A stretch of DNA of 40,312 nucleotides from Candidatus Aenigmatarchaeota archaeon (GCA_030615165.1 JAUWZW010000002.1:1-40312), one strand, 5' to 3'; counted from the stretch's first letter, positions 12,874 through 39,883 are shown. Numbers and translations: made by a program. The notes: generated by a model not told the origin, from the letters alone.

Positions 12874-13629
12874 TCAATCCCTCCTGTTGAGCAACTCTTT
12901 CTCTGTAGCCAAAAGAGCCTCATGCGTTCCTACATCCCTGTATATGCCCCTGTGCACAACAGCATAGCACGGCAGACCTTGTTTGAGCATTAATATTATG
13001 GAATCTGTTATCTGGTATTCACCCTTTGCCCCCTTGGGTGTTTTTTCTATAAATCCGAATATCTCCGGCTCGAAAACATAAACCCCGTTTATACCCAGCC
13101 ATTCTCCATTAGTTTTGAGCCTTTCCAGCTCTTCATCTGTCTGCGGCTTTTCCATCATATCAAGAATTTTTCCGTTTTTGTCTATCTTAACTATGCCATA
13201 TCTTTTCGGGTCTGTTATAGCTGAAAGCCCCAGGGTACACTTAGAACCTGTTTTCTTATGTAATTCAACCAAATCCCTGACCAATTTATCCTTGGGTTCT
13301 ATTATCTCATCACCCAATGTAGCAACAAAGGTTTCGTTGTTTACCAGGGGTTTTGCTATATAGATGGCCTTTGCAACACCCAGCAATTCTGTCTGAAATC
13401 TGTAGGAGACATCAACACCTGTCCATTTACCGTCCCTAAGATAGTCAAGAATAGCCCCTTTGTTGTTACCTACTATGACTATTATGTTTTTTACGCCACC
13501 CGCCTTGAAAAGGTCTACAGCATGCTGTAAAAGCGGCTTGCCGCACACATGTACCATTTCCTTGGGTATGGAATATGTTAACGGTTCCAATCTTTCTCCC
13601 TTCCCAGCAGCTAGTATAACACCTTTCAT
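12874..13629 (-). CDS. Sugar-1-phosphate nucleotidyltransferase (RmlA/GalU/AglF-like)
   Basis: MKGVILAAGKGERL..PKEM, EKP, GEYQITD, DVGT. SD GAGGT before ATG 13629. Confidence 0.9.
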   Translation of the reverse strand: MKGVILAAGKGERLEPLTYSIPKEMVHVCGKPLLQHAVDLFKAGGVKNIIVIVGNNKGAILDYLRDGKWTGVDVSYRFQTELLGVAKAIYIAKPLVNNETFVATLGDEIIEPKDKLVRDLVELHKKTGSKCTLGLSAITDPKRYGIVKIDKNGKILDMMEKPQTDEELERLKTNGEWLGINGVYVFEPEIFGFIEKTPKGAKGEYQITDSIILMLKQGLPCYAVVHRGIYRDVGTHEALLATEKELLNRRD

Positions 13630-13671
13630 ATACCTCGCCTTCCTATCGGTGACGGGGATTGCCTTCGGCAA

Positions 13672-15030
13672 TCAATCGACACCTCGCCTTGGATCTTTGT
13701 GATACTCAGTCTTCGACTGAGCCAATCTGCCTGGCCAGCAGATGCCCTCAAAATTCTTTACACTTGAAGGATTTAAAACCTTTCTACCCTCAATAATTAC
13801 CTTGTTTTTCATCACATCAAAGTCCTTGTCGGAGAGGTTCTTAAATTCTTTCCAGTTTGTCAAAATCAAGCAACCGTCCGCATCCTTCAGACACTCTCTG
13901 GAATTGCTGCAGTACTCTATATCCCCATGCATTTTCCTCATGTTATCCATTGCCTGAGGGTCATATGCTGAAACTTTTGCACCCCTTTCCTTAAGCATTG
14001 AAATAACATCAATGGCGGGTGCTTCCCTTACATCATCGGAATCGGGCTTGAATGCGAGACCAAGAGCCGCGATTTTCTTGTTCTGTAACCCGTCAGTCCT
14101 GTTTTCCAGCATATCCACCAAAATCCTTCTCTGCTTCTTGTTCACATTCAGGACAGTGTTTAGAATCTGTGTATCATAACCCAAAGCCTTTCCCTTTGCT
14201 ACGATGGCAGCAATATCTTTGGGAAAACATGAACCCCCAAAACCTGCCCCAGCCCGCAGGAATTTGGGTGATATTCTGCTATCCATACCAACACCCTTCA
14301 TCACATTATATACATCAATCCCTAATCTCTTGCATATATTCCCAATCTCATTCGAGAGTGAAATCTTTGTTGCAAGCATTGCATTTGCAGCATACTTTAT
14401 CATCTCCGCTGTTTTCAGGTTTGTTCTCAAAACAGGGGCATTGAAATTGAAGTAAATCTTCTCTAAAACATCCCCGGACCTTTTATCATACTGCCCGATA
14501 ACAATTCTGTCCGGGTTTAGAAAATCCTCCAATGCATTACCTTCCCTGAGGAACTCCGGATTCACGCACACCCCTATATCATCACCAACCCCCTTCCCGG
14601 ATTTTTCTTCCAGATGCGGGATAACATTGATTTCTGTGGTACCCGGCACAACAGTGGATTTGACTACAATAACATGATAGCCTTCCTTGTTTTTTAGGGC
14701 AGTTCCTATGTCCTTTGATACCTGTTCAATATACCTTAAATCCATGGAACCATCCTGATTGGAGGGTGTTCCAACACAAATCATGGTCAGGTCGGAATTT
14801 GTAATCGCCCGGGTAAGGTCTGTTGTTGCCCTGAAAACACCCTTTGCTGTAACATTTTCCAGGTATTTTTTCAACTGTTTTTCATAAATTGGCGGCTCGG
14901 CTTTGTTTATCTGTTTTATCTTTTTTTCATCAACATCCATGCAAATAACATTGTTCCCCATCTTCGCGAATCCTACGCCTGTGCACAGCCCAACATAACC
15001 CGTGCCGATAATGCTTATATTCATGCTCAT
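13672..15030 (-). CDS. ugd: UDP-glucose/GDP-mannose 6-dehydrogenase
   Basis: IGTGYVG, KSTVVPGT, NPEFLREG, GFGGSCFPKD, GLAFKPDSDDVRE. Confidence 0.93.
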   Translation of the reverse strand: MSMNISIIGTGYVGLCTGVGFAKMGNNVICMDVDEKKIKQINKAEPPIYEKQLKKYLENVTAKGVFRATTDLTRAITNSDLTMICVGTPSNQDGSMDLRYIEQVSKDIGTALKNKEGYHVIVVKSTVVPGTTEINVIPHLEEKSGKGVGDDIGVCVNPEFLREGNALEDFLNPDRIVIGQYDKRSGDVLEKIYFNFNAPVLRTNLKTAEMIKYAANAMLATKISLSNEIGNICKRLGIDVYNVMKGVGMDSRISPKFLRAGAGFGGSCFPKDIAAIVAKGKALGYDTQILNTVLNVNKKQRRILVDMLENRTDGLQNKKIAALGLAFKPDSDDVREAPAIDVISMLKERGAKVSAYDPQAMDNMRKMHGDIEYCSNSRECLKDADGCLILTNWKEFKNLSDKDFDVMKNKVIIEGRKVLNPSSVKNFEGICWPGRLAQSKTEYHKDPRRGVD

Positions 15031-15082
15031 ATTTACTCAGTAAGGTATTAATATTTATATTTCTGATTTTAAACTGATATTT

Positions 15083-15799
15083 ATGAAAAAGATTGAAACA
15101 GCAGTGCTGCTTTGCGGAGGAAAAGGAACAAGGCTGAGACCTGTAACGTATGAGATACCAAAGTCCCTTGTACCGATACAGGGTAAAACCCTCTTGGAAC
15201 ACCTGCTCGATCTCCTGAAGAAGTATGGAATAAAAAATGTAATATTATCCGTTGGCTACCTAAAGGACAACATAAAGCAGCATTTTGGGGATGGTTCGAG
15301 ATTCGGTATAAATATAACTTATGTTGAGGAGGATACACCGTTGGGAACAGCCGGACCTTTGGGGTTACTCAAAACCCTCAACATGTTACCGAACAGGGCA
15401 TTCATAACCTCAAACGGAGACGAACTCAAGGATATAAATATAACAGAGATGTACAAACTACACAAAGCGAAGAATGCACTGGCAACCATAGCCCTGACAA
15501 GGGTAGAAGACCCAAGCCAGTATGGTGTTGCAAGACTGGAGGGAAACAGGATTCTGGAGTTTGTGGAAAAGCCAAAAAAGGGGGAAGCACCATCCAATTT
15601 AATCAATTCAGGGTTCTATATACTGGAGCCATCAATTGTAGATATAGTCCACAATGGTTTTGCGATGCTCGAAAAAGATGTTTTCCCGCTCCTTGCAAGA
15701 CAGGGCAAACTTTTCGGTTTTTCATTCAAAGGGCAATGGTTTGATATCGGAAACCCCGAGAGACTTGAAAAAGCAAGAAGGGAATGGAAGGGGATTTAA
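15083..15799 (+). CDS. Nucleotidyltransferase (mannose-1-phosphate guanylyltransferase-like)
   Basis: GGKGTRLRP..PK, PLGTAG, NGD, FVEKP, WFDIG. Confidence 0.9.
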   Translation: MKKIETAVLLCGGKGTRLRPVTYEIPKSLVPIQGKTLLEHLLDLLKKYGIKNVILSVGYLKDNIKQHFGDGSRFGINITYVEEDTPLGTAGPLGLLKTLNMLPNRAFITSNGDELKDINITEMYKLHKAKNALATIALTRVEDPSQYGVARLEGNRILEFVEKPKKGEAPSNLINSGFYILEPSIVDIVHNGFAMLEKDVFPLLARQGKLFGFSFKGQWFDIGNPERLEKARREWKGI

Positions 15800-15829
15800 C
15801 CTTTATAATTCCACTGCTTAATATTAATC

Positions 15830-16567
15830 ATGAGAAAGGCGTTTTCCTTGATTTCAGGGGTTTTGTTTCTGGCAATCACCATAACAGCGGTTGTTGTTGT
15901 ATATCAAGCCGGGATGCCCATCGTCAAGAGGATGCAGGTATCTGCAGCAATAGAGCAGATGAAAACAACATTTGTAGAGCTGGACGAGCTGATAAGACAG
16001 ATAGCAGCTGAGGGGGCTGGTTCCAAGAGAGCGGTTCAGCTGAGGGTGGACCCGGGCAAGCTCATAGTTAATGAAATCCAGGACTCTATTTACTGGGAAC
16101 TGGAGACATATGCAATGATTATCTCACCGAGAACCAAACAGCAGTTTGGCAACATTGCTGTGGGTTCAAATCTGAATACAAGGGTATATGAGGCAAACTA
16201 TACAAGGGTATCACCGGAGATTAAATGTTATGTGATGGAGAATGAACATCTGAAGGTTTATGTGAGAAAGGTAGGTGTCAACACATCTCAAGACGGCTGG
16301 GAGAATTTCAACACAAGCTCACTTGTCATTGCAATCTACAACAAGGATATGAATGAATGGCTTGAGAATGAGGGGTTTCTGGAGATAACAGTTGATGATA
16401 ATACAAATTCAAAAACAGGAAATGGCTATACAATACCACTCGAGACAGGGTACAATCTGCCGTATGGAGCGGTAACAGCACATATGAACTCCAGCTATCT
16501 CGCATACAGCATAAACTTCACCCTTGGGTCAGGTGCTGACTTTTTGGATATTGAGGCAAGCACCTAA
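15830..16567 (+). CDS. Class III signal peptide protein (minor pilin-like)
   Basis: MRKA/FSLISGVLFLAITITAVVVV N-terminus, several NxS/T sequons; N-terminal half resembles 28303..28986. Confidence 0.7.
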   Translation: MRKAFSLISGVLFLAITITAVVVVYQAGMPIVKRMQVSAAIEQMKTTFVELDELIRQIAAEGAGSKRAVQLRVDPGKLIVNEIQDSIYWELETYAMIISPRTKQQFGNIAVGSNLNTRVYEANYTRVSPEIKCYVMENEHLKVYVRKVGVNTSQDGWENFNTSSLVIAIYNKDMNEWLENEGFLEITVDDNTNSKTGNGYTIPLETGYNLPYGAVTAHMNSSYLAYSINFTLGSGADFLDIEAST

Positions 16568-16568
16568 T

Positions 16569-16692
16569 CCCTTTCTTTCGGGAAAGAAAGGTCTAAGGTA
16601 CAAAGGTCAAACATAGTAACGGTTTGAACCGTTAACCGATGAACATACGAACAGATGAATGTTTGAGCCTTTGTATTACCCCAAAGAAAGGG
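16569..16692. repeat. MITE-like palindromic element with a nested 77-nt hairpin insert
   Basis: Terminal IR ccctttcttt / aaagaaaggg. Without the 16599-16675 insert it matches 25146-25188 in the tRNA-Ile intron. Confidence 0.65.
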
Positions 16693-16751
16693 AGATTGTA
16701 AAGCAATGGGTCAATATATTAACAGGGCTCATAGCTCAGCCCTGAGCCTTT

Positions 16752-16827
16752 CACAAAGGTTAAGCAAATAACAGTTCAAACTGTTAATTGATGAACAGAT
16801 GAACTTATGATCGCTTAAGCCTTTGTG
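16752..16827. repeat. Second copy of the 76-77 nt covarying hairpin element
   Basis: cacaaagg-ttaagc...gcttaa-g-cctttgtg with inner taacagt/actgtta hairpin; homologous to 16599-16675. Confidence 0.7.
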
Positions 16828-16856
16828 GCTTACCCAAAAAATATGAGGAAGATATT

Positions 16857-17336
16857 ATGAAAAGAATGAAGGCAATATCACCGCTGATTTCTGCAGTCAT
16901 GGTAATCCTAATTGCATTTGCTTTATCCGCTCTCATAGCTCCCTGGGCGTTTGAGATAGCAAGGCAGCAGACAAACCAGACAGGCGGCTATGCAGAGCAG
17001 CAGATGATATGCCAGAACACAGCATATGACTTTGATACAAACTACGGGACAAACGGCGTTAATTGGACCTCTACAGGAACAAACGATAATTTAACTGTAA
17101 AGATAGTGAATACGGGATATCAAAATCTCTACAATTTCTCATTTGAACTTGTGATAAATGACACAGTTATATTGCGTCCTGATGTAACAGATGCGACCCA
17201 GAAGACAAGTATAAATCCTCTGGAACCTAGTCAGAGTACTTTCCTCAATACAACAGCCAATATCAGCGGAACATTGAGTGAAGTCAAGATACTAAACATA
17301 GTTTGCCCGAGTGTTTATGCAAGGCAGGAATTGTAA
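16857..17336 (+). CDS. Archaeal type IV pilin-like protein
   Basis: MKA/ISPLISAVMVILIA class III signal peptide, IVNTG motif, two Cys, many NxS/T sequons. Confidence 0.85.
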   Translation: MKRMKAISPLISAVMVILIAFALSALIAPWAFEIARQQTNQTGGYAEQQMICQNTAYDFDTNYGTNGVNWTSTGTNDNLTVKIVNTGYQNLYNFSFELVINDTVILRPDVTDATQKTSINPLEPSQSTFLNTTANISGTLSEVKILNIVCPSVYARQEL

Positions 17337-17419
17337 TAGCACAGCCGCTATTCTAACTATTTATATCAAGAAGTGGTTAAATTATATTATAGAAAGTTAA
17401 GCAAATAACGGGTAATGAT

Positions 17420-17962
17420 ATGCCTAATGATGAAGATATTTCTAAAACCCCCGGCCAGATTGAGACAAAGGAAAAAAAGAAGATAATCCCAGAGATGATT
17501 GCCCATATAAACAGGGTTGAAGAGAAAATAAACACGCTCAAAGAGGGCATGAGAGAGATAAAGGATTTGCAGACAGTGAACAAGCTCGATATCATAAACC
17601 TGAAGAATGAGATAGAGCAGATAAAGCTTTCCATACCAACCCTTTCTCCGGAGAATATAGAGAAAGTCAAGGCAATGGAGAAGCTGGCAGAAAAGGCTGA
17701 AAAAGCAGAGAAGATAAAGGATGATGTTGATAAACTCAAGTCAGATATGAAGAAACTGGATATGCTTCAGAAGAAACTGGCGGAGATTGAGAAAATACAC
17801 GCCAATAGGAGGGTTACAAAAGATGTTAAAACAAAGCCAAGGCGTATGCTTCACATACCAGGTCGATTAAAAAGAACAAAGATTAAAAAATGCAAAAAGT
17901 GCGGGGCTGTGCTGATCCCCAAGGCAAAGTTTTGCGGAAGGTGCGGGGCAAAAGGGAGGTAA
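17420..17962 (+). CDS. Coiled-coil protein with C-terminal zinc ribbon
   Basis: K/E-rich heptads, then CKKCG...FCGRCG. Confidence 0.8.
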   Translation: MPNDEDISKTPGQIETKEKKKIIPEMIAHINRVEEKINTLKEGMREIKDLQTVNKLDIINLKNEIEQIKLSIPTLSPENIEKVKAMEKLAEKAEKAEKIKDDVDKLKSDMKKLDMLQKKLAEIEKIHANRRVTKDVKTKPRRMLHIPGRLKRTKIKKCKKCGAVLIPKAKFCGRCGAKGR

Positions 17963-17963
17963 C

Positions 17964-19700
17964 ATGAAATCATGTCCGAAATGCAAGAGATCCTATCCTG
18001 ATACGGAAAACTACTGCATACATTGCGGCACAAGGCTTGCTGCGAAGAAGCCGAGAGAATGGATAAAGCCTGTAAAACCACCAAGGGATATCACTGTTCT
18101 GAAGAGGAAGATGGATAAACTTGAAAGGGATGCTTCCCCCAGGCAGTTTGCAAAGCTGAGTAAAAAGATAGACGCCCTGGAACAGAGAATGAATGCCACG
18201 ATACTGCTGGCAAGAAAGACAAGCAGGATTAAATTCCCCCCTGAGGAAAGGATGATTTCCTTATCGGCTAAGGTCAAAAAGCTTGAACAGAAGCTGGACT
18301 CTGTCAATGGAACTGTTTATGGGCTGGAGAAGATAAAACTCGAGCCAGAGATACATAAAGCACTGAGGGCGAAGATAAATGGACTGGAGAGGGAGCTCAA
18401 GAGGGTCGAGAAGAATACAAGAAGGATGGTTGAGATTAAGTCCCTTCCAAAGAAAGAAGCAATGTCCATTGTGGACGAGATTGGCAAACTGGAGAGAAAG
18501 GCGGATGCAATGGGTGAGGCAGCTGACTATGGAAGGAGCATAGAGAAATTGAAAAAGATGGTTGAGACAGCGGATTCAAAGATAATGGGACTGACGGATT
18601 TTATAAAGGATAATGAAGGGAGCCTTGGTGGGATTGAAAAAGGCCTCAAGGGTGTTGTCAGAAGGGTTGACCTGAAGGATTTTCAGGAAAAGGTCATCGG
18701 CGATATGGATTCCCTGAATGAAGAGGTCAGGAGAAAAATCAGCTCAGACAGCGCAATGATAAAAAAGATAAGCAGAAAACTTAAAGAGCAGGATAAATTT
18801 ATTACTGATTTTACAAAGACATGGGAGTCGCTGGGCAAATTCAAGGAGAGGATGTTGCTTCTGATAGGCCTTACCCTGCAGGAGAAGAAAAAGTCAAGGA
18901 GGATAAAGAACAGGTTAAGGATAATGGTTGAGAAGAGAATGGCTGAAATCAGGGAGCAGAACGATTTACTGACCAAAGCGATGGAGGCAAGGTTTGATGA
19001 AGCCAAGGCAGATGTTTCCAAGGATGTGAGGGATTTGGGGTTAAGGTTTGATGAAGAACTGCAATCGGTAAATGAGACCCTTGCCAATAAGGAGAAGAGA
19101 ATTTCTGCAAAACTCTCTTCCATTAGTAAGGATGCTATTTCAAAAAAAGAATTGGAGGATTTCAGGAGGGAGTTCGGTGTAGAGAAGGCAAGGGTTTTTG
19201 ACGTCGTGGACCAGTTGGTTGACCAGGGCAAGATTATTGAGGAGCTTGAGAATGTAAAGGAGAACCTGATATCAGAGCAAAGGCTGAAGATAAGCGGATT
19301 CGGAGCAGGGCTCAGGCAAGAGCTTGACAAGATGAAAGCAGAACATGGGGAAGCCGTATCTTCCCTGAAGGAATCAGAAAGCAAATTCAAAACATCCATG
19401 AAAAAATTGAGGAAGGAGATGTGGGAAGAGACGAGGACTAATGAGAAATTGAGGGAGGACATGAGCGCAATGCTTGGGGAATTCAGGACAATAGGAAGCG
19501 ATTCACAGGAAAAACTTGGCATGGTCAAGGGTGTCATAGACAACCTTGAGAAGAGGTTCAGGGTTGAGATAGAATCCCTAGAGGAAAAGCTGGAAAAGAT
19601 GAGAAAGATTATAAAGATTCAGGAGAAACAAGAATCAGATAGGATAAGCCCGCTGAATCTGGGGAAGGAAACAAGGATAGTAAAGAAGCCGGGAAAATAG
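17964..19700 (+). CDS. N-terminal zinc ribbon plus long coiled-coil protein
   Basis: CPKC...YCIHCG, then about 500 aa of heptad-rich sequence. SD GGAGGT upstream. Confidence 0.8.
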   Translation: MKSCPKCKRSYPDTENYCIHCGTRLAAKKPREWIKPVKPPRDITVLKRKMDKLERDASPRQFAKLSKKIDALEQRMNATILLARKTSRIKFPPEERMISLSAKVKKLEQKLDSVNGTVYGLEKIKLEPEIHKALRAKINGLERELKRVEKNTRRMVEIKSLPKKEAMSIVDEIGKLERKADAMGEAADYGRSIEKLKKMVETADSKIMGLTDFIKDNEGSLGGIEKGLKGVVRRVDLKDFQEKVIGDMDSLNEEVRRKISSDSAMIKKISRKLKEQDKFITDFTKTWESLGKFKERMLLLIGLTLQEKKKSRRIKNRLRIMVEKRMAEIREQNDLLTKAMEARFDEAKADVSKDVRDLGLRFDEELQSVNETLANKEKRISAKLSSISKDAISKKELEDFRREFGVEKARVFDVVDQLVDQGKIIEELENVKENLISEQRLKISGFGAGLRQELDKMKAEHGEAVSSLKESESKFKTSMKKLRKEMWEETRTNEKLREDMSAMLGEFRTIGSDSQEKLGMVKGVIDNLEKRFRVEIESLEEKLEKMRKIIKIQEKQESDRISPLNLGKETRIVKKPGK

Positions 19701-19782
19701 TTAAGCCCGCAAGGCGGAGGAGGGTTGAACGCCAGCAAGTTCATATAAAGCGTTCTCCGTCATAGTTCGCAAGGCGGTATAC

Positions 19783-20418
19783 ATGGCAAAAATAAAGGGT
19801 CTTGAAGGCACAGAGAAGGATTTTGAAGTCCTAGAGAAAGGCATAAAGAAACTGCTCGAGGACACGCAGGAGGATAGGTTCGAGGAGATGACCGAGATAA
19901 TGGGAGAAAGGATAGATGAAGGAATGTCCTCCCTCAAGGATGAACTGGAGAGAAGGATTGATGATATGAAAAAAGAAAAGATTGATATTGCGAGTTTCCT
20001 TGCTGAGATAAAGAAGAACAGGGGAAGGATTACCAAGATGGAAGAGAGGCTCGATTCCTTTAAAAAGGATGATTCAACAGGCAGGAAGAACATGGAGGAT
20101 GATATTCATAGGGAGTTTGAGAAGGTAAAGAACGGGGTAAAGCAGGGCATAACAGAAAATGCAGGGACAATCAAAAATATGGAGGCAGAGATGGCAAATT
20201 TCAGGGAAAGGATAGAGGAAGTCAAGCTCCTTGGAGATGCCCTGAAGGGGCTTGATGTGAGGAGCGTAGCAAGGGATATTGAGGTTTTGAAGCAAAAGAC
20301 ACACTGGCTTGGAGAGAACATAGAAAAGTTCAATATCCAGCCTTTATTCAAAAGGATAAGGGAAATAGAGGAAGAGGTAAAGGTAACAAGGGACAGATCA
20401 CCATTGGTTATAGAGTAG
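19783..20418 (+). CDS. Coiled-coil hypothetical protein
   Basis: 211 aa E/K-rich helical protein with host-like codon usage. Confidence 0.75.
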   Translation: MAKIKGLEGTEKDFEVLEKGIKKLLEDTQEDRFEEMTEIMGERIDEGMSSLKDELERRIDDMKKEKIDIASFLAEIKKNRGRITKMEERLDSFKKDDSTGRKNMEDDIHREFEKVKNGVKQGITENAGTIKNMEAEMANFRERIEEVKLLGDALKGLDVRSVARDIEVLKQKTHWLGENIEKFNIQPLFKRIREIEEEVKVTRDRSPLVIE

Positions 20419-20463
20419 CGGGCAGTCAAAAGTTATAAATACATTGGAGGGTAATAGAAGTAT

Positions 20464-20556
20464 ATGAGAGGAGAAATCGTTATTTTCATAATAGGGGTAA
20501 TAGTTGGAATCCTGCTGGTGAAATACATTCTTCCGATGATCGGCATATCAATATAA
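20464..20556 (+). CDS. Small 30-aa single-TM protein (absent from ORF track)
   Basis: MRGEIVIFIIGVIVGILLVKYILPMIGISI*, with TATA-like ttataaata about 25-30 nt upstream and GGAGG upstream. Confidence 0.6.
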   Translation: MRGEIVIFIIGVIVGILLVKYILPMIGISI

Positions 20557-20616
20557 TTGTGCTGCTTTCTACAGGGCGCAAGTGCCTATTTTTAAACCAA
20601 TCGCTTAAATTAAACT

Positions 20617-21912
20617 ATGGGTTTTTTGAATATTTTCAGAAAGAGGAAAGAAAAACCAGAGCCGCAGGAGATTGAGCAGAGGACAGAAGAGTCAGTCCTT
20701 GCTACAGATGAGATTCTGGAATGGATAGATAAGGAATTCAGGGAGAAACTGGATAGAGCCCACTCTAAGGCAAGTGAGATTCAAAACAGTGTAATGGATG
20801 GCTTCTCAAGGTTAAGGGATTCTGTAAGTATTTTGGAGAAGGCAAGTTTTGAAAAACAGGACAGGAGCTATGCAGCAGTAAACATGGTTAAGGACTCCTT
20901 TGTGAAGAGAACATATTCCCTCATAAACAATGTGAGAAAGATACAGGGCGACCTGAATTATACAGGACTCAAGGATTTCCACTCAGCTACGTCGAGGGTT
21001 GTAAATAAATTGAAGAATCTCTCACCAAAGCAGATGGTCATGCTTTCAAACTACTTCAAGAAGGAATGCAATAACGTTATCAGTAAAATGAGACGGGTTG
21101 AGGATGATGTAAAGTCTTTGGGCGGATTTCTTGAATCTGACGCAAGGGTGATGAGAATGATTCAGGATGTAAACATGAGTGTGCTCAAGCAGGGTGAACT
21201 TTTAAGGGAATTGAATTCCATTGGGAAGAGAGGGGATGAGATCCGGAATAAACTGGATGACCTGAAAGGGGTTAAGAAGGAGAAGGAATCAGGGCTTCAA
21301 AAGCTGCTGAAGAGCAGGGAATGGAGAGAGCTGGAGAGCATCAAGGAAAAGACTGAAAGGATAAGGCAGGAGATGTCAGACATCGAGAACATAGTGAATG
21401 AAAAGATATCATCTGTGAAGAGGCCATTCAAGAAACTGAAGCATGTCTTGGATGCAGAAACCACAACAAAGGAGTCTTTCCCGGATAACCCGTTCAGGGA
21501 AGTTATAATGAGGGACAGGGAGAACTGGTTAAAGAACACACTGGATTCAATCAGAGATTTCTCTGAAAGCGGAAGGATTGCATTAAAACCAAGTGAGAAG
21601 AAGAGGGTTCTTGATTTGATTAAGATACTGGAATCAGAGATACCAAGGGAGAAGGAAAAACACAGGAAATTGGCAAATGACATGAATGAGAAGGAAAGAG
21701 GGCTAAAAACCGATGTTATAAGAAAGATAAACTCCCTTAAGGGTGCAATAAAAAACAGCGCTGAGAGGATGCTGTCCTTGGAGAAGGAGGCAAATGTAAT
21801 CTGGGATGACAAGGAAAGGATAAAGGGTGATTTGATTGAGGAGAAGAAAAAAACAGAAAGGCTCATTCTTGAAAGCAGTGGAAGGAAAGTCAGAATTAAG
21901 ATCTCTGGCTGA
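20617..21912 (+). CDS. Coiled-coil hypothetical protein
   Basis: 431 aa; MGFLNIFRK amphipathic start, long charged helices. Confidence 0.8.
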   Translation: MGFLNIFRKRKEKPEPQEIEQRTEESVLATDEILEWIDKEFREKLDRAHSKASEIQNSVMDGFSRLRDSVSILEKASFEKQDRSYAAVNMVKDSFVKRTYSLINNVRKIQGDLNYTGLKDFHSATSRVVNKLKNLSPKQMVMLSNYFKKECNNVISKMRRVEDDVKSLGGFLESDARVMRMIQDVNMSVLKQGELLRELNSIGKRGDEIRNKLDDLKGVKKEKESGLQKLLKSREWRELESIKEKTERIRQEMSDIENIVNEKISSVKRPFKKLKHVLDAETTTKESFPDNPFREVIMRDRENWLKNTLDSIRDFSESGRIALKPSEKKRVLDLIKILESEIPREKEKHRKLANDMNEKERGLKTDVIRKINSLKGAIKNSAERMLSLEKEANVIWDDKERIKGDLIEEKKKTERLILESSGRKVRIKISG

Positions 21913-23020
21913 GCGCTTGCTGGAAAAGCAGCTGTGTGATAACTGCCTCGGAAGGCAGATGGCAATGGTATCCACAGGGATGACAAACAGGGAGCGGGGC
22001 AGGGTTTTGAGAAGGCTTTTCAAGGCAGGAAAAGAGCCAGGAAAATGTTCCGTGTGCAGGGGGCTCTTTAAGAATCTGAACAGGCTCGCCCTGAGGGCTG
22101 TCAAGAAACTGGGAAGGATAGAATTCAACACGTTTGTTGTCGGCTCAAAGATAAACCAAGGGTTTATATCCAGGGAGGAGTCTTTGTGGAGGTTGGTTGG
22201 TATCAAGTACTGCGAATCCCTGAAGGCAGAGCTCAACAGGGAACTGGGCAAGCTCATATGGAAGAAAACAGGGAAGCGTGCCGATGAAAAAAACCCTGAT
22301 GTAACGGTTATAATTAACACAGAAAGAGATGAGATAGAGCTGAGGATAAACCCTTTATTTGTTTACGGGAAATATAAAAAGCTTGTGAGGGGAATCCCTC
22401 AGACAAAATGGGATATGTATCCGGAGACTATCGAGGATATAATAGCCAAACCATTCATGAAATTCACAAAGGGCAGCAGGCATGCATTTCATGGCGCAGG
22501 AAGGGAGGATGTTGATGCACGCTGCCTGGACTGGAGACCGTTTGTCTTCGAGGTTTTCGAGCCTTTAAAGAGAAACCTGGATTTAAAAAGAATAAAGAAG
22601 GAGATTAACAAGACAGGCAAGGTCAGGGTTAGTAATTTAAGGAATTCAGAGAAAAAGGAGGTAGTAAAGATAAAATCCATAAGGCCTGATAAAACATACA
22701 GGATATTGATTGGATTTGAAAAGCCTGTCAAGGCAGGGGAACTGAAGAAGCTGAGAACCCTTACAGGGATTATTGAACAGAAAACACCAAACAGGGTGTT
22801 GCACAGGAGGGCTGACCTCCTGAGGAAGAGAAGGGTTAAAAGCATAAAATGGAAAAGGATAAGTAATAAAAAAATCGAAATAGAAATCAGGAGCGAGGCA
22901 GGGCTTTACGTAAAGGAAATGGTAACAGGCGACAGGGGAAGGACAAAACCAAATGTGGCAGCTCTCCTAAAAAACCCCACAAAGATACTGGAGCTGGATG
23001 TTGTAAAAATATGGTTGTAA
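21836..23020 (+). CDS. pus10: tRNA pseudouridine(54/55) synthase Pus10
   Basis: LCDNCLGR, C..C, RGIPQTKW, HGAGREDVDAR, QKTPNRVLHRR, GLYVKE. GTG at 21878 is a plausible true start. Confidence 0.95.
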   Translation: MRRRKKQKGSFLKAVEGKSELRSLAERLLEKQLCDNCLGRQMAMVSTGMTNRERGRVLRRLFKAGKEPGKCSVCRGLFKNLNRLALRAVKKLGRIEFNTFVVGSKINQGFISREESLWRLVGIKYCESLKAELNRELGKLIWKKTGKRADEKNPDVTVIINTERDEIELRINPLFVYGKYKKLVRGIPQTKWDMYPETIEDIIAKPFMKFTKGSRHAFHGAGREDVDARCLDWRPFVFEVFEPLKRNLDLKRIKKEINKTGKVRVSNLRNSEKKEVVKIKSIRPDKTYRILIGFEKPVKAGELKKLRTLTGIIEQKTPNRVLHRRADLLRKRRVKSIKWKRISNKKIEIEIRSEAGLYVKEMVTGDRGRTKPNVAALLKNPTKILELDVVKIWL

Positions 23021-23049
23021 GAATCAATTAATAAAAGCAGTTCGTAAAG

Positions 23050-23256
23050 TTTGACATAGACGGAGTCGTGTCTCGTAGACACGAGATTGAGTGAGCTTTG
23101 CTCACGAAAGATGTGCTCACAACTCTTGTGCTGAGGCACAAGATCGCGCCTCGCTGGCGCGAGACGTCTCTGCGTCAGAGACGCAGACATATCTTCATCC
23201 AATGCAGAGGAGAGATGAAGATATATGTTCCCGTCAGAGTTCATAAGGCGAGGTTT
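23050..23256 (+). repeat. Array of at least six GC-rich hairpins (structured leader or REP-like array)
   Basis: Hairpins at 23066-23084, 23091-23105, 23124-23143, 23144-23162, 23169-23187 and 23189-23224, closed by gacgg (23059-63) / ccgtc (23231-35). Confidence 0.75.
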
Positions 23257-23568
23257 ATGACCAAACCAAGCAAGGGCATGAGGCATAGAACAAGAAGGAA
23301 GCTGAAGAAGGGCTTCAGGGAAAGGTTTAAGCCAGAGAGGTTCATACAAGAATTTAAACCAGAAGACAAAGTAATAATCAAGCAGAATGCATCCTCGCAC
23401 AAAATGCCCCATCCAATATTCAAGGGAAGAATAGGCAGGGTAAGGGAAAAGAGAGGAAGGGCTTACATAGTCGAAATCAGGATCGGAAACAAGATAAAAG
23501 AGCTGATGGTAAGACCGGAGCACCTCCTAAAGCTTCCTCAAAGAAAACCTTGGAAAAGAAATAGGTGA
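23257..23568 (+). CDS. rpl21e: 50S ribosomal protein L21e
   Basis: SKGMRHRTRRKL, MPHPIFKGRIG, VRPEHL. SD GAGGT before ATG 23257. Confidence 0.95.
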   Translation: MTKPSKGMRHRTRRKLKKGFRERFKPERFIQEFKPEDKVIIKQNASSHKMPHPIFKGRIGRVREKRGRAYIVEIRIGNKIKELMVRPEHLLKLPQRKPWKRNR

Positions 23569-39770: not shown

Positions 39771-39883
39771 TGGGCCCGGCGCGATTCGAACACGCGACCC
39801 TCGGCTTTCTTCACAGGCTTGCGCCTCAGCTCTTCTATTAAGCTATAGAAGACCGATGCTCTATCCAACTGAGCTACGGACCC
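39771..39883 (-). tRNA. tRNA-Arg(UCU) with canonical 37/38 intron (39807-39845)
   Basis: GGGTCCG/CGGGCCC-A acceptor, TCGGT-CT-TCT-A/A-GCCGA anticodon arm, TTCGAAT T loop, BHB with central helix CTTC/GAAG. Confidence 0.93.

Follow-up and report, generated by a model that had tools for sequence, protein, structure and literature searches.

The three places in the window (the whole analysed stretch of 40,312 nucleotides, JAUWZW010000002.1:1-40312 of GCA_030615165.1, from a Candidatus Aenigmatarchaeota archaeon) at which a common leader motif had been described are, on balance, best read as copies of a modular repeat specific to this lineage, here called a hairpin leader cassette, that fronts start codons and whose core is likely a ribosome-binding site (RBS). 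By analogy it corresponds, in archaea, to repeats found at bacterial gene starts, such as MIRU and REP2. The cassette would spread and decay at the DNA level directly 5' of start codons, new copies presumably arriving exactly at the ATG, and would be co-transcribed as a 5' leader or intercistronic spacer. Its AAGGCGA box would occupy the position of GGAGG and could pair with the 16S rRNA 3' end; the hairpin would most likely be a structural insulator, a stabiliser or a handle for copying, and the ATG would belong to the downstream gene and not to the cassette.

The motif CCGTCA-N8-AAGGCG-N6-ATG was found where the preliminary description had placed it (13655-13627, minus strand; 19757-19785 and 23231-23259, plus strand). 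At up to one mismatch the window holds three matches against 0.05 expected, a number reached by none of 100 shuffles. Across the source genome (G000, an Aenigmarchaeota genome of 958 kb, 82% complete), the exact N8 motif occurs six times, CCGTMA-N7/8-AAGGCG 23 times and the latter followed by N6-ATG 13 times, the respective means in eight first-order Markov simulations being 0.125, 0.25 and 0. The fixed spacing and the first box CCGTCA hold exactly for the three sites but not genome-wide, where a 7-nt spacing is as common as 8 nt (six exact matches each) and the first box has A, C or T as its fifth letter. A hairpin precedes each motif, as had been reported, with six of them within 23066-23224 at the third site (Table 1). 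The two 10-bp direct repeats pointed out earlier are also real, each marking the AAGGCG box of a neighbouring upstream copy, tandem or older: at site 1 the repeat originates from the distal tandem copy, and at site 2 it belongs to the remnant core. An AAGGCG-type box lies at most 25 nt upstream in 10 of 47 copies, compared with 2.5% of control windows. The UDP-glucose dehydrogenase ORF, whose Pfam domain ends at residue 421 of 452, draws its final ~20 codons and its stop (13674-13672) from the distal copy of site 1.

Table 1. Parts of the repeat at the three sites, in window coordinates
Feature	Position	Strand	Details
Site 1, ATG-proximal copy	13627..13687	-	CM R1 35.8 bits, E 1.6e-8
Site 1, proximal parts	TTGAT 13675-13671; hairpin GATTGCC-gaa-GGCAATC 13673-13657; CCGTCA 13655-13650; AAGGCG 13641-13636	-	
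Site 1, start codon	ATG 13629-13627	-	NTP_transferase gene
Site 1, distal tandem copy	13676..13734	-	full second copy; CM R1 34 bits
Site 1, distal parts	AAGGCG 13690-13685	-	hairpin GCTCAGTC/GACTGAGT; first box degenerate
Site 2, remnant core of older copy	19705..19718	+	GCCCGCAAGGCGG; directly 3' of the upstream gene's stop; the upstream direct repeat of site 2
Site 2, copy	19716..19785	+	CM R1 33.6 bits
Site 2, parts	hairpin GAACGC 19727-19732 / GCGTTC 19750-19755; CCGTCA 19757-19762; AAGGCG 19771-19776	+	GGAGGAGGG TTGAAC; 17-nt loop
Site 2, start codon	ATG 19783-19785	+	211-aa protein without Pfam family
Site 3, degenerate core-like word	23040..23056	+	GTTCGTAAAG, then TTTGAC, the element's 5' start; by eye, unscored
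Site 3, expanded hairpin region	23054..23230	+	outer arms GACATA / TATGTT around six hairpin modules; z -4.4
Site 3, hairpin modules	23066-84, 23091-105, 23124-43, 23144-62, 23165-83, 23189-224	+	
Site 3, core	23226..23259	+	R1 30.8 bits; R2 30.4 bits
Site 3, core parts	CCGTCA 23231-23236; AAGGCG 23245-23250; ATG 23257-23259	+	ATG of rpl21e

The motif common to the three sites is the 3' core of a modular repeat of 55-70 nt, with the consensus order optional GGAGGG, TTGAC, a variable 7-9-bp palindrome, YCCGTMA, 7-8 nt (often AGTTYGC), AAGGCGA, RGKNT (about 5 nt) and ATG; the palindrome can be swollen by nested hairpin modules, and apart from it no terminal inverted repeats, as a MITE would have, were seen. 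In the source genome nhmmer gave 49 matches at E<=1 and 44 at E<=0.001, and CM R1 gave 49 at E<=0.01. The end of the copy is the exact ATG of an ORF of at least 50 codons in 25 of 47 copies, against a background of 0.5% of positions, and in seven further copies the model ATG is 1-5 nt off such a start. The remaining copies stand before a tRNA, a canonical Shine-Dalgarno (SD) sequence or another copy, and one is located inside a 23S rRNA loop; three copies are followed by a canonical SD and an ATG 12-15 nt further on. The copy on contig C22 ends at a mature tRNA 5' end, and that on C18 at the start of what by eye is a probable intron-bearing tRNA, judging from a 7-bp acceptor match and from T-arm words that long inserts separate, for which neither ARAGORN nor Rfam made a call. 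Every scored copy points the same way as its downstream gene, and arrays run head-to-tail; the placement is that of MIRU-like repeats, namely intercistronic, co-oriented, tandem, variable in number and ending at a start codon. Downstream genes in the source genome include those for the ribosomal proteins S5, S13, L2, S12, S28e, an L7Ae-family protein, L3 and L21e, with a remnant at S17, as well as aRF1, aIF2alpha, RpoD and two tRNAs; unrelated genes, encoding Mbh subunits, an ABC transporter, DeoC and an NTP transferase, are also found there.

The hairpin covaries. Its columns pair in 96.5% of cells in 69 aligned copies, compared with 74% in shuffles, and the covariation that had been proposed as a check was found, since all nine pairs have changed on both sides and the observed values were reached by none of 500 shuffles. 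Identical hairpin types are found at up to seven loci, loops are present both as GAA and as its complement TTC (flip and flop), and a composite nested form is repeated on C67, C57 and C38. The modules of site 3 recur elsewhere in the genome with 86-100% identity, some of them at 98-100% on other contigs (23091-23144 corresponds to C66:22056-22109 at 98%). Strains differ at this site: on a near-identical strain contig 27 letters, a simple canonical hairpin, replace 210 nt before rpl21e, another strain contig carries rpl21e without a preceding element, and a 57-nt module between AGAT flanks, which could be duplication or deletion microhomology, is missing in two runs. The strain joints are 23015>23226, 23083>23141 and 23011>23256; no target-site duplication of the whole element was seen, and no pair of filled and empty sites was clean enough for an insertion junction. 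With 44-49 copies, hairpin subfamilies at several loci, strain indels and a patchy copy number, the earlier proposal of a small mobile hairpin element, with the motif as its conserved end, is supported.

In sister genomes the presence/absence comparison that had been suggested points the same way, the core being present in 25 of 91 genomes of the order, with 0-47 copies each. The source genome has 42 copies and G007 has 47, mostly in tandem arrays of 2-5, while the other genomes with the core have 1-9; none of 21 genomes of four families has it. By reading, the distal units score lowest in four of five G007 arrays, a weak tendency. Pus10 and rpl21e are adjacent without the element in four relatives. 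The rule of placement at the ATG holds at 18 of 24 loci of other genomes, where the element-bearing genes include EF-1beta (three times), S19e, an L40e-like protein and RpoN, and the element is common to two genera at four of seven orthologous genes. Between two genera, the EF-1beta leaders agree at 28 of 34 core positions, against 54% at third codon positions, and the stem shows compensatory changes, which points to selection.

As regards the core, the suggestion that the element supplies a ribosome-binding site agrees with copies that end at start codons and hold an SD-like box in the SD register. AAGGCG ends at -6, which is where GGAGG ends in the other genes of the source genome, and the 16S rRNA 3' end, GGATCACCTCCTTA, is of the ordinary type. 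The median duplex energy with this end is -7.9 kcal/mol for element cores (n=30), -4.1 for other genes (n=852) and -6.0 for shuffles, a modest gain over the latter. By reading, AAGGCGA is an imperfect SD in which five of seven positions pair, with an invariant C where A would pair. From these sequence comparisons, the conserved 3' core is most likely the ribosome-binding region. A CCGUAA/UUAUGG helix around a UUCGC-AAG-GCGAA hairpin was seen in many minimum-energy folds, and a clamping of the start codon by this helix is a possibility raised by the folding model; the helix shows no covariation because the -1 base is always T, irrespective of the fifth letter of the first box.

It is possible, though unlikely, that YCCGTMA...AAGGCGA is instead the operator of a regulon, bound by a conserved trans-acting RNA-binding protein or small RNA, and that the repeats merely spread this site; such a factor would jointly control information-processing genes, at the level of translation or of stability. 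Across two families the core sequence has been retained while the hairpins differ, and this conservation could be the sign of a trans-acting factor other than the ribosome; the invariant C of AAGGCGA is not expected from SD selection, downstream genes are rich in ribosomal proteins, and the G007 tandem arrays of up to five units resemble multi-site platforms. However, the genes downstream are in many cases unrelated, the analysis yielded no candidate factor, and, among the matches listed, the source-genome orthologues of most genes that bear the element elsewhere lack it (EF-1beta, S19e, Rad50); the copy within the 23S rRNA gene and the strain indels suit a selfish repeat better. A more specific form, which we consider slightly less probable still, would have the core act as a non-canonical initiation or control signal for a conserved factor, the cassettes wiring genes into a post-transcriptional regulon, ribosomal proteins, translation factors and tRNAs first. 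If true, this would amount to an archaeal, mobile equivalent of a common leader like the eukaryotic 5'TOP motif, with new copies directed to a gene's first base, either the start codon or tRNA +1.

A further reading concerns mobility only and is compatible with the hairpin leader cassette: the repeat would be REP/REPIN-like or derived from IS200/IS605, and a Y1 (HUH) transposase would mobilise it through its hairpin in single-stranded DNA. Such an origin is doubtful. The palindrome with an unpaired CGT(C/A/T) tag at one end recalls the bacterial CGTC-tagged REPs (PMC3733652), the source genome encodes IS605-type tnpA/tnpB and a RayT-like protein, and the flip and flop loops suggest hairpin events at the DNA level. 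Against this, the flanks of both transposase genes are unlike the element, and its copies are head-to-tail and co-oriented with genes, whereas REPs are inverted dimers downstream of genes (PMC3733652). The RayT-like protein (NF047646, 82.6 bits for a cut-off of 80; C33:2419-2904, with a frameshift at the start) is encoded in 2 of 91 genomes and is missing from G007 with its 47 copies, and neither the element nor any other genome repeat was found in the flanks of its gene; repeats that flank and co-occur with a RAYT gene, as in REP systems, were therefore not observed. Y1 transposases (PF01797) are present in 17 of 91 genomes without tracking element copy number, and the ends of the IS605-like element on C22 match no repeat, so that the ends are not like those of a resident IS as in PATEs. 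No transposase could be tied to the element, be it through IS605 ends, through the flanks of the RayT-like gene or through the occurrence of PF01797 and RayT-like proteins in 91 genomes. By eye, the C22 IS605-like end has a hairpin followed by TTCCGTAT, which alone resembles the first box.

That the hairpin and core direct an RNA cut 6-8 nt past AAGGCG, freeing leaderless mRNAs and tRNA 5' ends, is improbable. The element does end at a functional 5' boundary, be it the ATG, the mature tRNA end on C22 or, by eye, the probable tRNA on C18, and many genes of the source genome look leaderless. Rfam returned one tRNA and nothing else for the window at the gathering score and, for six element-bearing loci, no ribozyme or other RNA family even at E<=1; no candidate for the nuclease emerged, tRNA 5' ends are made by RNase P in any case, and a cut would be needless in the three copies with a canonical SD and ATG further on.

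It was also speculated in the preliminary description that CCGTC alternates between two partners, GRCGG upstream and GGCG(A)GG downstream, toggling the RBS as a two-state anti-SD leader; this now appears very unlikely. Over 36 folded copies the summed pair probability of CCGUC:GGCG averages 0.30, and this pairing rarely enters the minimum-energy fold, although the CCGU:GGCG sum exceeds 1.9 in three of them, and the AAGGCGA box is unpaired 52% on average; these fold statistics already speak, weakly, against a switch. In the minimum-energy fold of site 3, GACGG 23059-63 is indeed paired with CCGUC 23231-35, but what had been taken for an upstream partner is a residual core or the base of the main hairpin. 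More than half of the copies have A or T as the fifth letter of the first box and so lose the pair, and those before tRNAs or within 23S rRNA have no SD to hide. No covariation was seen between YCCGTMA and AAGGCGA because both are invariant; box-to-box mutual information was set aside since about 30 chance matches contaminate the 133 regex instances (tag CGTC in 54, CGTA in 49 and CGTT in 27).

Hardly tenable is a promoter, in which boxes at -26 and -12 from the ATG would replace TATA and proximal elements and start leaderless transcripts. Archaeal promoter elements lie at positions matching the boxes of the element, which keep a fixed distance from the ATG or tRNA 5' end. This reading is rejected because the element has no A/T-rich box inside and TATA-like boxes lie upstream of some copies (about 11 of 45), starting 19-31 nt before TTGAC in ten copies and 41 nt in an eleventh, compared with about 29 nt before the ATG for other genes; the many other, apparently leaderless genes of this genome carry their own TATA-like words, starting 27-30 nt before the ATG. 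Given the position of these boxes near TTGAC, some transcripts may therefore begin in the 5' arm, without the hairpin. Integron attC sites and CRISPR-like arrays, which the hairpins and arrays had brought to mind, were dropped because core genes lie downstream and the 'spacers' are themselves related palindromes, and MIRU-style coupling to an upstream ORF was rejected for lack of a conserved internal ORF in the source-genome copies, the common type of which has a stop right after TTG. An ATGA-type overlap occurs in single cases only, at C44 (ATGGAATGA) and in one G007 unit.

MIRUs are among the known systems closest to the hairpin leader cassette. In the literature (PMC12548453; PMC3184786) they are mobile elements said to 'insert themselves at start codons' while leaving the gene largely unharmed, and they share with the archaeal element a size of 40-100 bp, about 40-50 copies, an intercistronic location, tandem arrays and co-transcription, the last being likely here from placement. 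MIRUs differ in having a small ORF whose stop overlaps the gene start (-4 coupling), whereas the archaeal element combines a hypervariable palindrome with a fixed core. Neisseria REP2 and Borrelia IR-A/B carry a promoter and an ATG; here no promoter was found in the element, the ATG is the gene's own, and internal tandem units, the tRNA-linked C18 copy and the 23S copy have none. BOX repeats consist of boxA-B-C modules, and the BOX, Correia (CREE) and ERIC group has these, terminal inverted repeats or TA duplications, without a fixed distance to start codons. They nevertheless recall the present element, being small repeats of modular or mosaic build that are transcribed together with genes and affect mRNA structure or expression (PMC3184786). 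The likeness to REP, BIME and REPIN sequences lies in short palindromes (stems of 8-9 bp, loops of 4-5 nt), perhaps with an unpaired tetranucleotide tag, a very uneven copy number among relatives, mosaic clusters and some intragenic copies, features given in PMC3733652. REPs are mostly downstream of genes as inverted dimers, and the GTAG types flank the RAYT gene, in contrast to the head-to-tail element at gene starts with its 25-nt conserved tail.

Repeats that settle at start codons with their own translation signal are known from few bacteria (MIRU, REP2), and a full-text literature search found no description of one in archaea or DPANN. About 45 genes of a 1-Mb symbiont-type genome would depend on this leader, among them nine ribosomal-protein genes, aRF1, aIF2alpha, RpoD and two tRNAs, which would make the cassette a natural system for leadered translation initiation in otherwise largely leaderless archaea and bears on the survival of selfish DNA in streamlined genomes. 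It may also serve as a strain marker, as in MIRU typing, and it accounts for oddly long tracts of hairpins between genes, for ORFs extended at the C-terminus and for insertions in rRNA in the annotation of these MAGs.

The motif CCGTCA-N8-AAGGCG-N6-ATG was confirmed by direct reading of the sequence at all three gene starts for which it had been claimed, with the spacings given to it, and these are the only places in the window that match it at up to one mismatch, against 0.05 expected from 100 shuffles. The enrichment extends to the whole assembly of the source genome, G000 (958,306 bases, 75 contigs, 43.6% G+C, 82% complete), where the exact motif occurs six times, CCGTMA-N7/8-AAGGCG 23 times and the latter followed by N6-ATG 13 times, against means of 0.125, 0.25 and 0, respectively, in eight first-order Markov simulations. 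The finding is real and reaches far beyond these three sites; its best reading is a hairpin repeat of archaeal gene starts whose tail resembles a ribosome-binding site.

Positions of the repeat and of neighbouring features (plain numbers, window; C, contig of G000; L, extracted locus stretch)
Feature	Position	Strand	Remark
Motif, site 1	13655-13627	minus	gene 3' of motif: NTP_transferase
Motif, site 2	19757-19785	plus	gene 3' of motif: 211-aa protein without Pfam family
Motif, site 3	23231-23259	plus	gene 3' of motif: ribosomal protein L21e (rpl21e)
Site 1 distal copy	13676-13734	minus	full second copy just 5'; its AAGGCGAGGT is the repeated 10-mer
UDP-glucose dehydrogenase ORF overrun	13672-13764	minus	
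Variable intergenic stretch	16567-16863		between DUF7289-like and CARDB-like genes
tRNA	39771-39883	minus	Rfam, 113 nt, 53.5 bits; not called by ARAGORN
Second copy of 57-nt site 3 module	C66:22056-22109		98% identity
23S rRNA gene	C18:8-4365 (L072)	minus	4358 nt
Copy in 23S rRNA	C18:3449-3497		
16S rRNA gene	C18:5092-6657		
Putative tRNA genes	C18 (L072 8100-8570)		
Composite form	C57:20020-20123; C64:5421-5620; C67:18459-18559; C38:1210-1287		nested hairpins
IS605-type pair	C22:3362-5055 (L107 212-1905)	tnpB minus, tnpA plus	tnpB 405 aa, tnpA 141 aa
RayT-like gene	C33:2405-2904 (L152 406-905)		
Tandem leaders of related genome G007	L057 1300-1640; L048 1500-1860; L066 300-660		rps17; 186-aa protein; rtcB

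Relaxed scans and alignments in G000 showed the motif to make up the 3' third of a larger unit, which reads, 5' to 3', often (A)GGAGGG, TTGAC, a palindrome of highly variable sequence (stem of 7-9 bp, loop of 3-5 nt), Y-CCGT-M-A, a spacer of 7 or 8 nt (often AGTTYGC), AAGGCGA, about five letters (RGKNT) and ATG. In this genome nhmmer returned 49 matches, 44 of them with E<=0.001, and a covariance model of the hairpin and its flanks also 49 (E<=0.01); leaving out two hairpin-only matches on the opposite strand gave a set of 47 copies, in which site 1 is represented by the ATG-proximal copy, found with filters off. When 69 copies drawn from three genomes are aligned to the model, the paired share of hairpin cells is 96.5% (74% in shuffles), nine of nine pairs vary on both sides, values attained by 0 of 500 shuffles, and slid pairing partners give 18-51%, the fitting of the alignment to the model being a bias in favour of structure. 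No Rfam family matches the element: the window was scored at the gathering cut-off, and six loci that bear a copy at E<=1. A second, composite form (CCCAAGC.../GTGACCGAAGGTCAC) is also present, with a variant tail, GTYGTCATCATAGTCACATG...CAGGGTGTAGGTT, ahead of ATG on C57 and C64.

In 25 of the 47 copies the model ATG is the start of an ORF of at least 50 codons, and in seven more it lies within 1-5 nt of one, against a background of only 0.5% of all genome positions. A canonical GGAGGTGA-type Shine-Dalgarno (SD) sequence and ATG lie 12-15 nt 3' of three copies (C41, C44, C38), several copies precede another unit or a second AAGGCG box (C57, C11, C51, C68), and the C61 copy is truncated by the contig end. 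On C22 a copy runs up to the first base of a tRNA that both Rfam and ARAGORN call. On C18 another occupies the entire gap between two putative intron-bearing tRNA genes, recognised by eye, neither of which is called by ARAGORN or Rfam; these have long inserts, including one of about 45 nt in the T-loop common to both, and an acceptor match of 7 bp (GCGGGGG/CCCCCGC) is visible in the region. Yet another forms a 62-nt insertion in a 23S rRNA hairpin loop, its core enclosed by the stem. The 23S rRNA gene exceeds its 2987-position model by about 1.4 kb of insertions, and the 16S gene has an insert of about 100 nt close to its 3' end.

The genes that follow copies encode ribosomal proteins (S5, S13, L2, S12, S28e, an L7Ae-family protein, L3 and L21e, with a remnant before S17), aRF1, aIF2alpha and RpoD, PolB, SMC, ScpB and NrdD, a Vps4-like ATPase, three Mbh subunits and several proteins of unknown function. 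TATA-like words stand 5' of about 11 of 45 copies, beginning 19-31 nt ahead of TTGAC in ten and 41 nt in the eleventh (C68); those of ordinary G000 genes begin 27-30 nt ahead of ATG. By these positions, about 11 copies would be leaders of predicted transcripts starting near or inside the 5' arm, and copies without such a word upstream are intercistronic.

The 16S rRNA of G000 has an ordinary 3' end (GGATCACCTCCTTA), with whose terminal UCCUCCUU AAGGCGA pairs, by eye, at five of seven positions in SD register. AAGGCG ends at -6; in other G000 genes the distance from the end of the box to ATG is 6-7 nt for GGAGG and 5 nt for AGGTG. When the 20 nt ahead of ATG are paired with the end of the 16S rRNA, the median duplex energy is -7.9 kcal/mol for 30 element genes, against -4.1 for other genes (n=852) and -6.0 for shuffled element sequences. 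From this register and these stronger energies, we take the core (CCGTMA-N7/8-AAGGCG up to ATG) to be a putative ribosome-binding region, serviceable though imperfect, which would account for the tolerance, or even retention, of copies that directly precede a start codon. The exact distance to the ATG may result from aimed insertion at the first base of the gene, as a review describes for MIRUs (PMC12548453), or from loss of a redundant native spacer until the new box stood at SD distance. The hairpin may act as an RNA stabiliser or insulator, or as a DNA handle for copying. Recognition of the invariant core by a trans-acting factor is a possible alternative, favoured by the bias of element genes toward translation and by an invariant C of the core that does not pair; a processing signal or a promoter is less likely.

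The preliminary description had also proposed a family of two-state leaders in which the SD is sequestered in alternation with upstream pairing, a model that neither the fold statistics nor the conservation of the boxes supports. The 10-bp direct repeats cited for it are real; they are core words of second or older copies at sites 1 and 2. The UDP-glucose dehydrogenase ORF takes its final ~20 codons, past the Pfam domain, from the distal copy at site 1; this ORF overruns its last Pfam domain by about 30 codons, into the copy, and its extension was created by the repeat. The repeat CGCAAGGCGG at site 2 is what is left of a core, immediately 3' of the upstream stop codon, and a core-like word lies at most 25 nt upstream in 10 of the 47 copies, against 2.5% of control windows. 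The supposed partner at site 3, GACGG (23059-63), is part of the 5' arm of the original hairpin, whose loop now contains six more hairpins.

The suggestion of a small mobile hairpin element is supported by the many copies in G000, by strain indels and by recurring modules. One study provided four public DNA runs, whose contigs were aligned to the window. A near-identical strain contig (10 differences in ~590 nt) had, in place of 23016-23225, 27 letters that complete a plain GGAGGG-TCGAC-hairpin unit at site 3; a second, with a flank of just 47 letters at a likeness threshold of 85, has 24 unrelated letters in place of 23012-23255 and is without the element, and may belong to a relative. The interval 23084-23140, a 57-nt module of two hairpins with AGAT on either side, is missing from contigs of two runs; this module recurs on C66, and other site 3 modules were found again on C45 and C52 (100%), C64 (86%), C12, C71 and C21. 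Identical hairpin types occur at several G000 loci (GACTGGC...GCCAGTC seven times), and two types have both loop GAA and its complement TTC; these flip/flop loops and the nested insertions point to DNA-level events. In four related MAG contigs (one titled Candidatus Aenigmatarchaeota), Pus10 and rpl21e abut or lie close together, without the element. Another intergenic stretch of the window also varies between strains, 295 nt at 16567-16863 being replaced by 27-32 other letters in contigs of two runs.

Among 31 related genomes, the covariance model matched in nine (G000, 44; G007, 28; G013, 4; others, 1-2). A sequence-only model run on 91 genomes of the order found the core in 25 (G000, 42; G007, 47; G050, 9; G077, 8; four genomes, 5 each; remainder, 1-3). 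It gave no match in the 21 genomes that belong to four further families; since many assemblies are incomplete, a count of zero means no more than that the core was not detected. In 18 of 24 loci from other genomes, the core follows a hairpin and its end coincides with the ATG that opens an ORF of at least 40 codons. Units in G007 form head-to-tail arrays of 2-5 ahead of single genes such as rps17 and rtcB; the three leaders tabulated hold 4-5 tandem units in at most ~380 nt, which start (A/T)TGAC or ACGAC and share CTAAC after the 5' arm. For seven G007 element genes checked in G000, an intact element was found at the rpl2 orthologue, an intact unit upstream of the ChsH2-like orthologue, only degenerate remnants at those of a MAKIVIRDD-starting family and rps17, and no element at the other three. 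The NrdD element is common to G000 and G050; among the orthologues listed, EF-1beta, S19e and Rad50 are without the element in G000, though it is present there in other genomes. In G014, and in G073 and G027 (second family), the element precedes EF-1beta. The leaders from G073 and G027 can be aligned over their whole length; 28 of the 34 positions of the core agree, compared with 54% of the gene's third codon positions, and the stems show compensatory changes, which argues that some copies are ancient and maintained by selection, others being recent.

A link between the element and Y1 transposases was sought in the G000 flanks and in the distribution over 91 genomes, and was not found. The G000 RayT-like (REP-associated tyrosine transposase) gene matches NF047646 at 82.6 bits (cut-off 80) and is frameshifted at its start, where ATGCCTAGAAAAC... 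lies one base out of frame at an A-run, which could reflect a pseudogene, an assembly error or slippage; the protein occurs in 2 of 91 genomes and is absent from G007. The IS605-type tnpA/tnpB pair, divergent and between tRNA genes, adjoins the C22 tRNA; on the 3' side of tnpA stands a hairpin, and after it TTCCGTAT. The flanks of both show no likeness to the repeat, and PF01797, present in 17 of 91 genomes, does not track element copy number. A search of full main texts returned no account of repeats of this kind for Aenigmarchaeota, DPANN or the ribosomal-protein operons of archaea; the nearest kinds are MIRUs, Neisseria REP2 and Borrelia IR repeats, and tagged REPs (PMC3184786, PMC3733652, PMC12548453). 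Apart from the repeat, the tRNA at the end of the window is probably intron-bearing.
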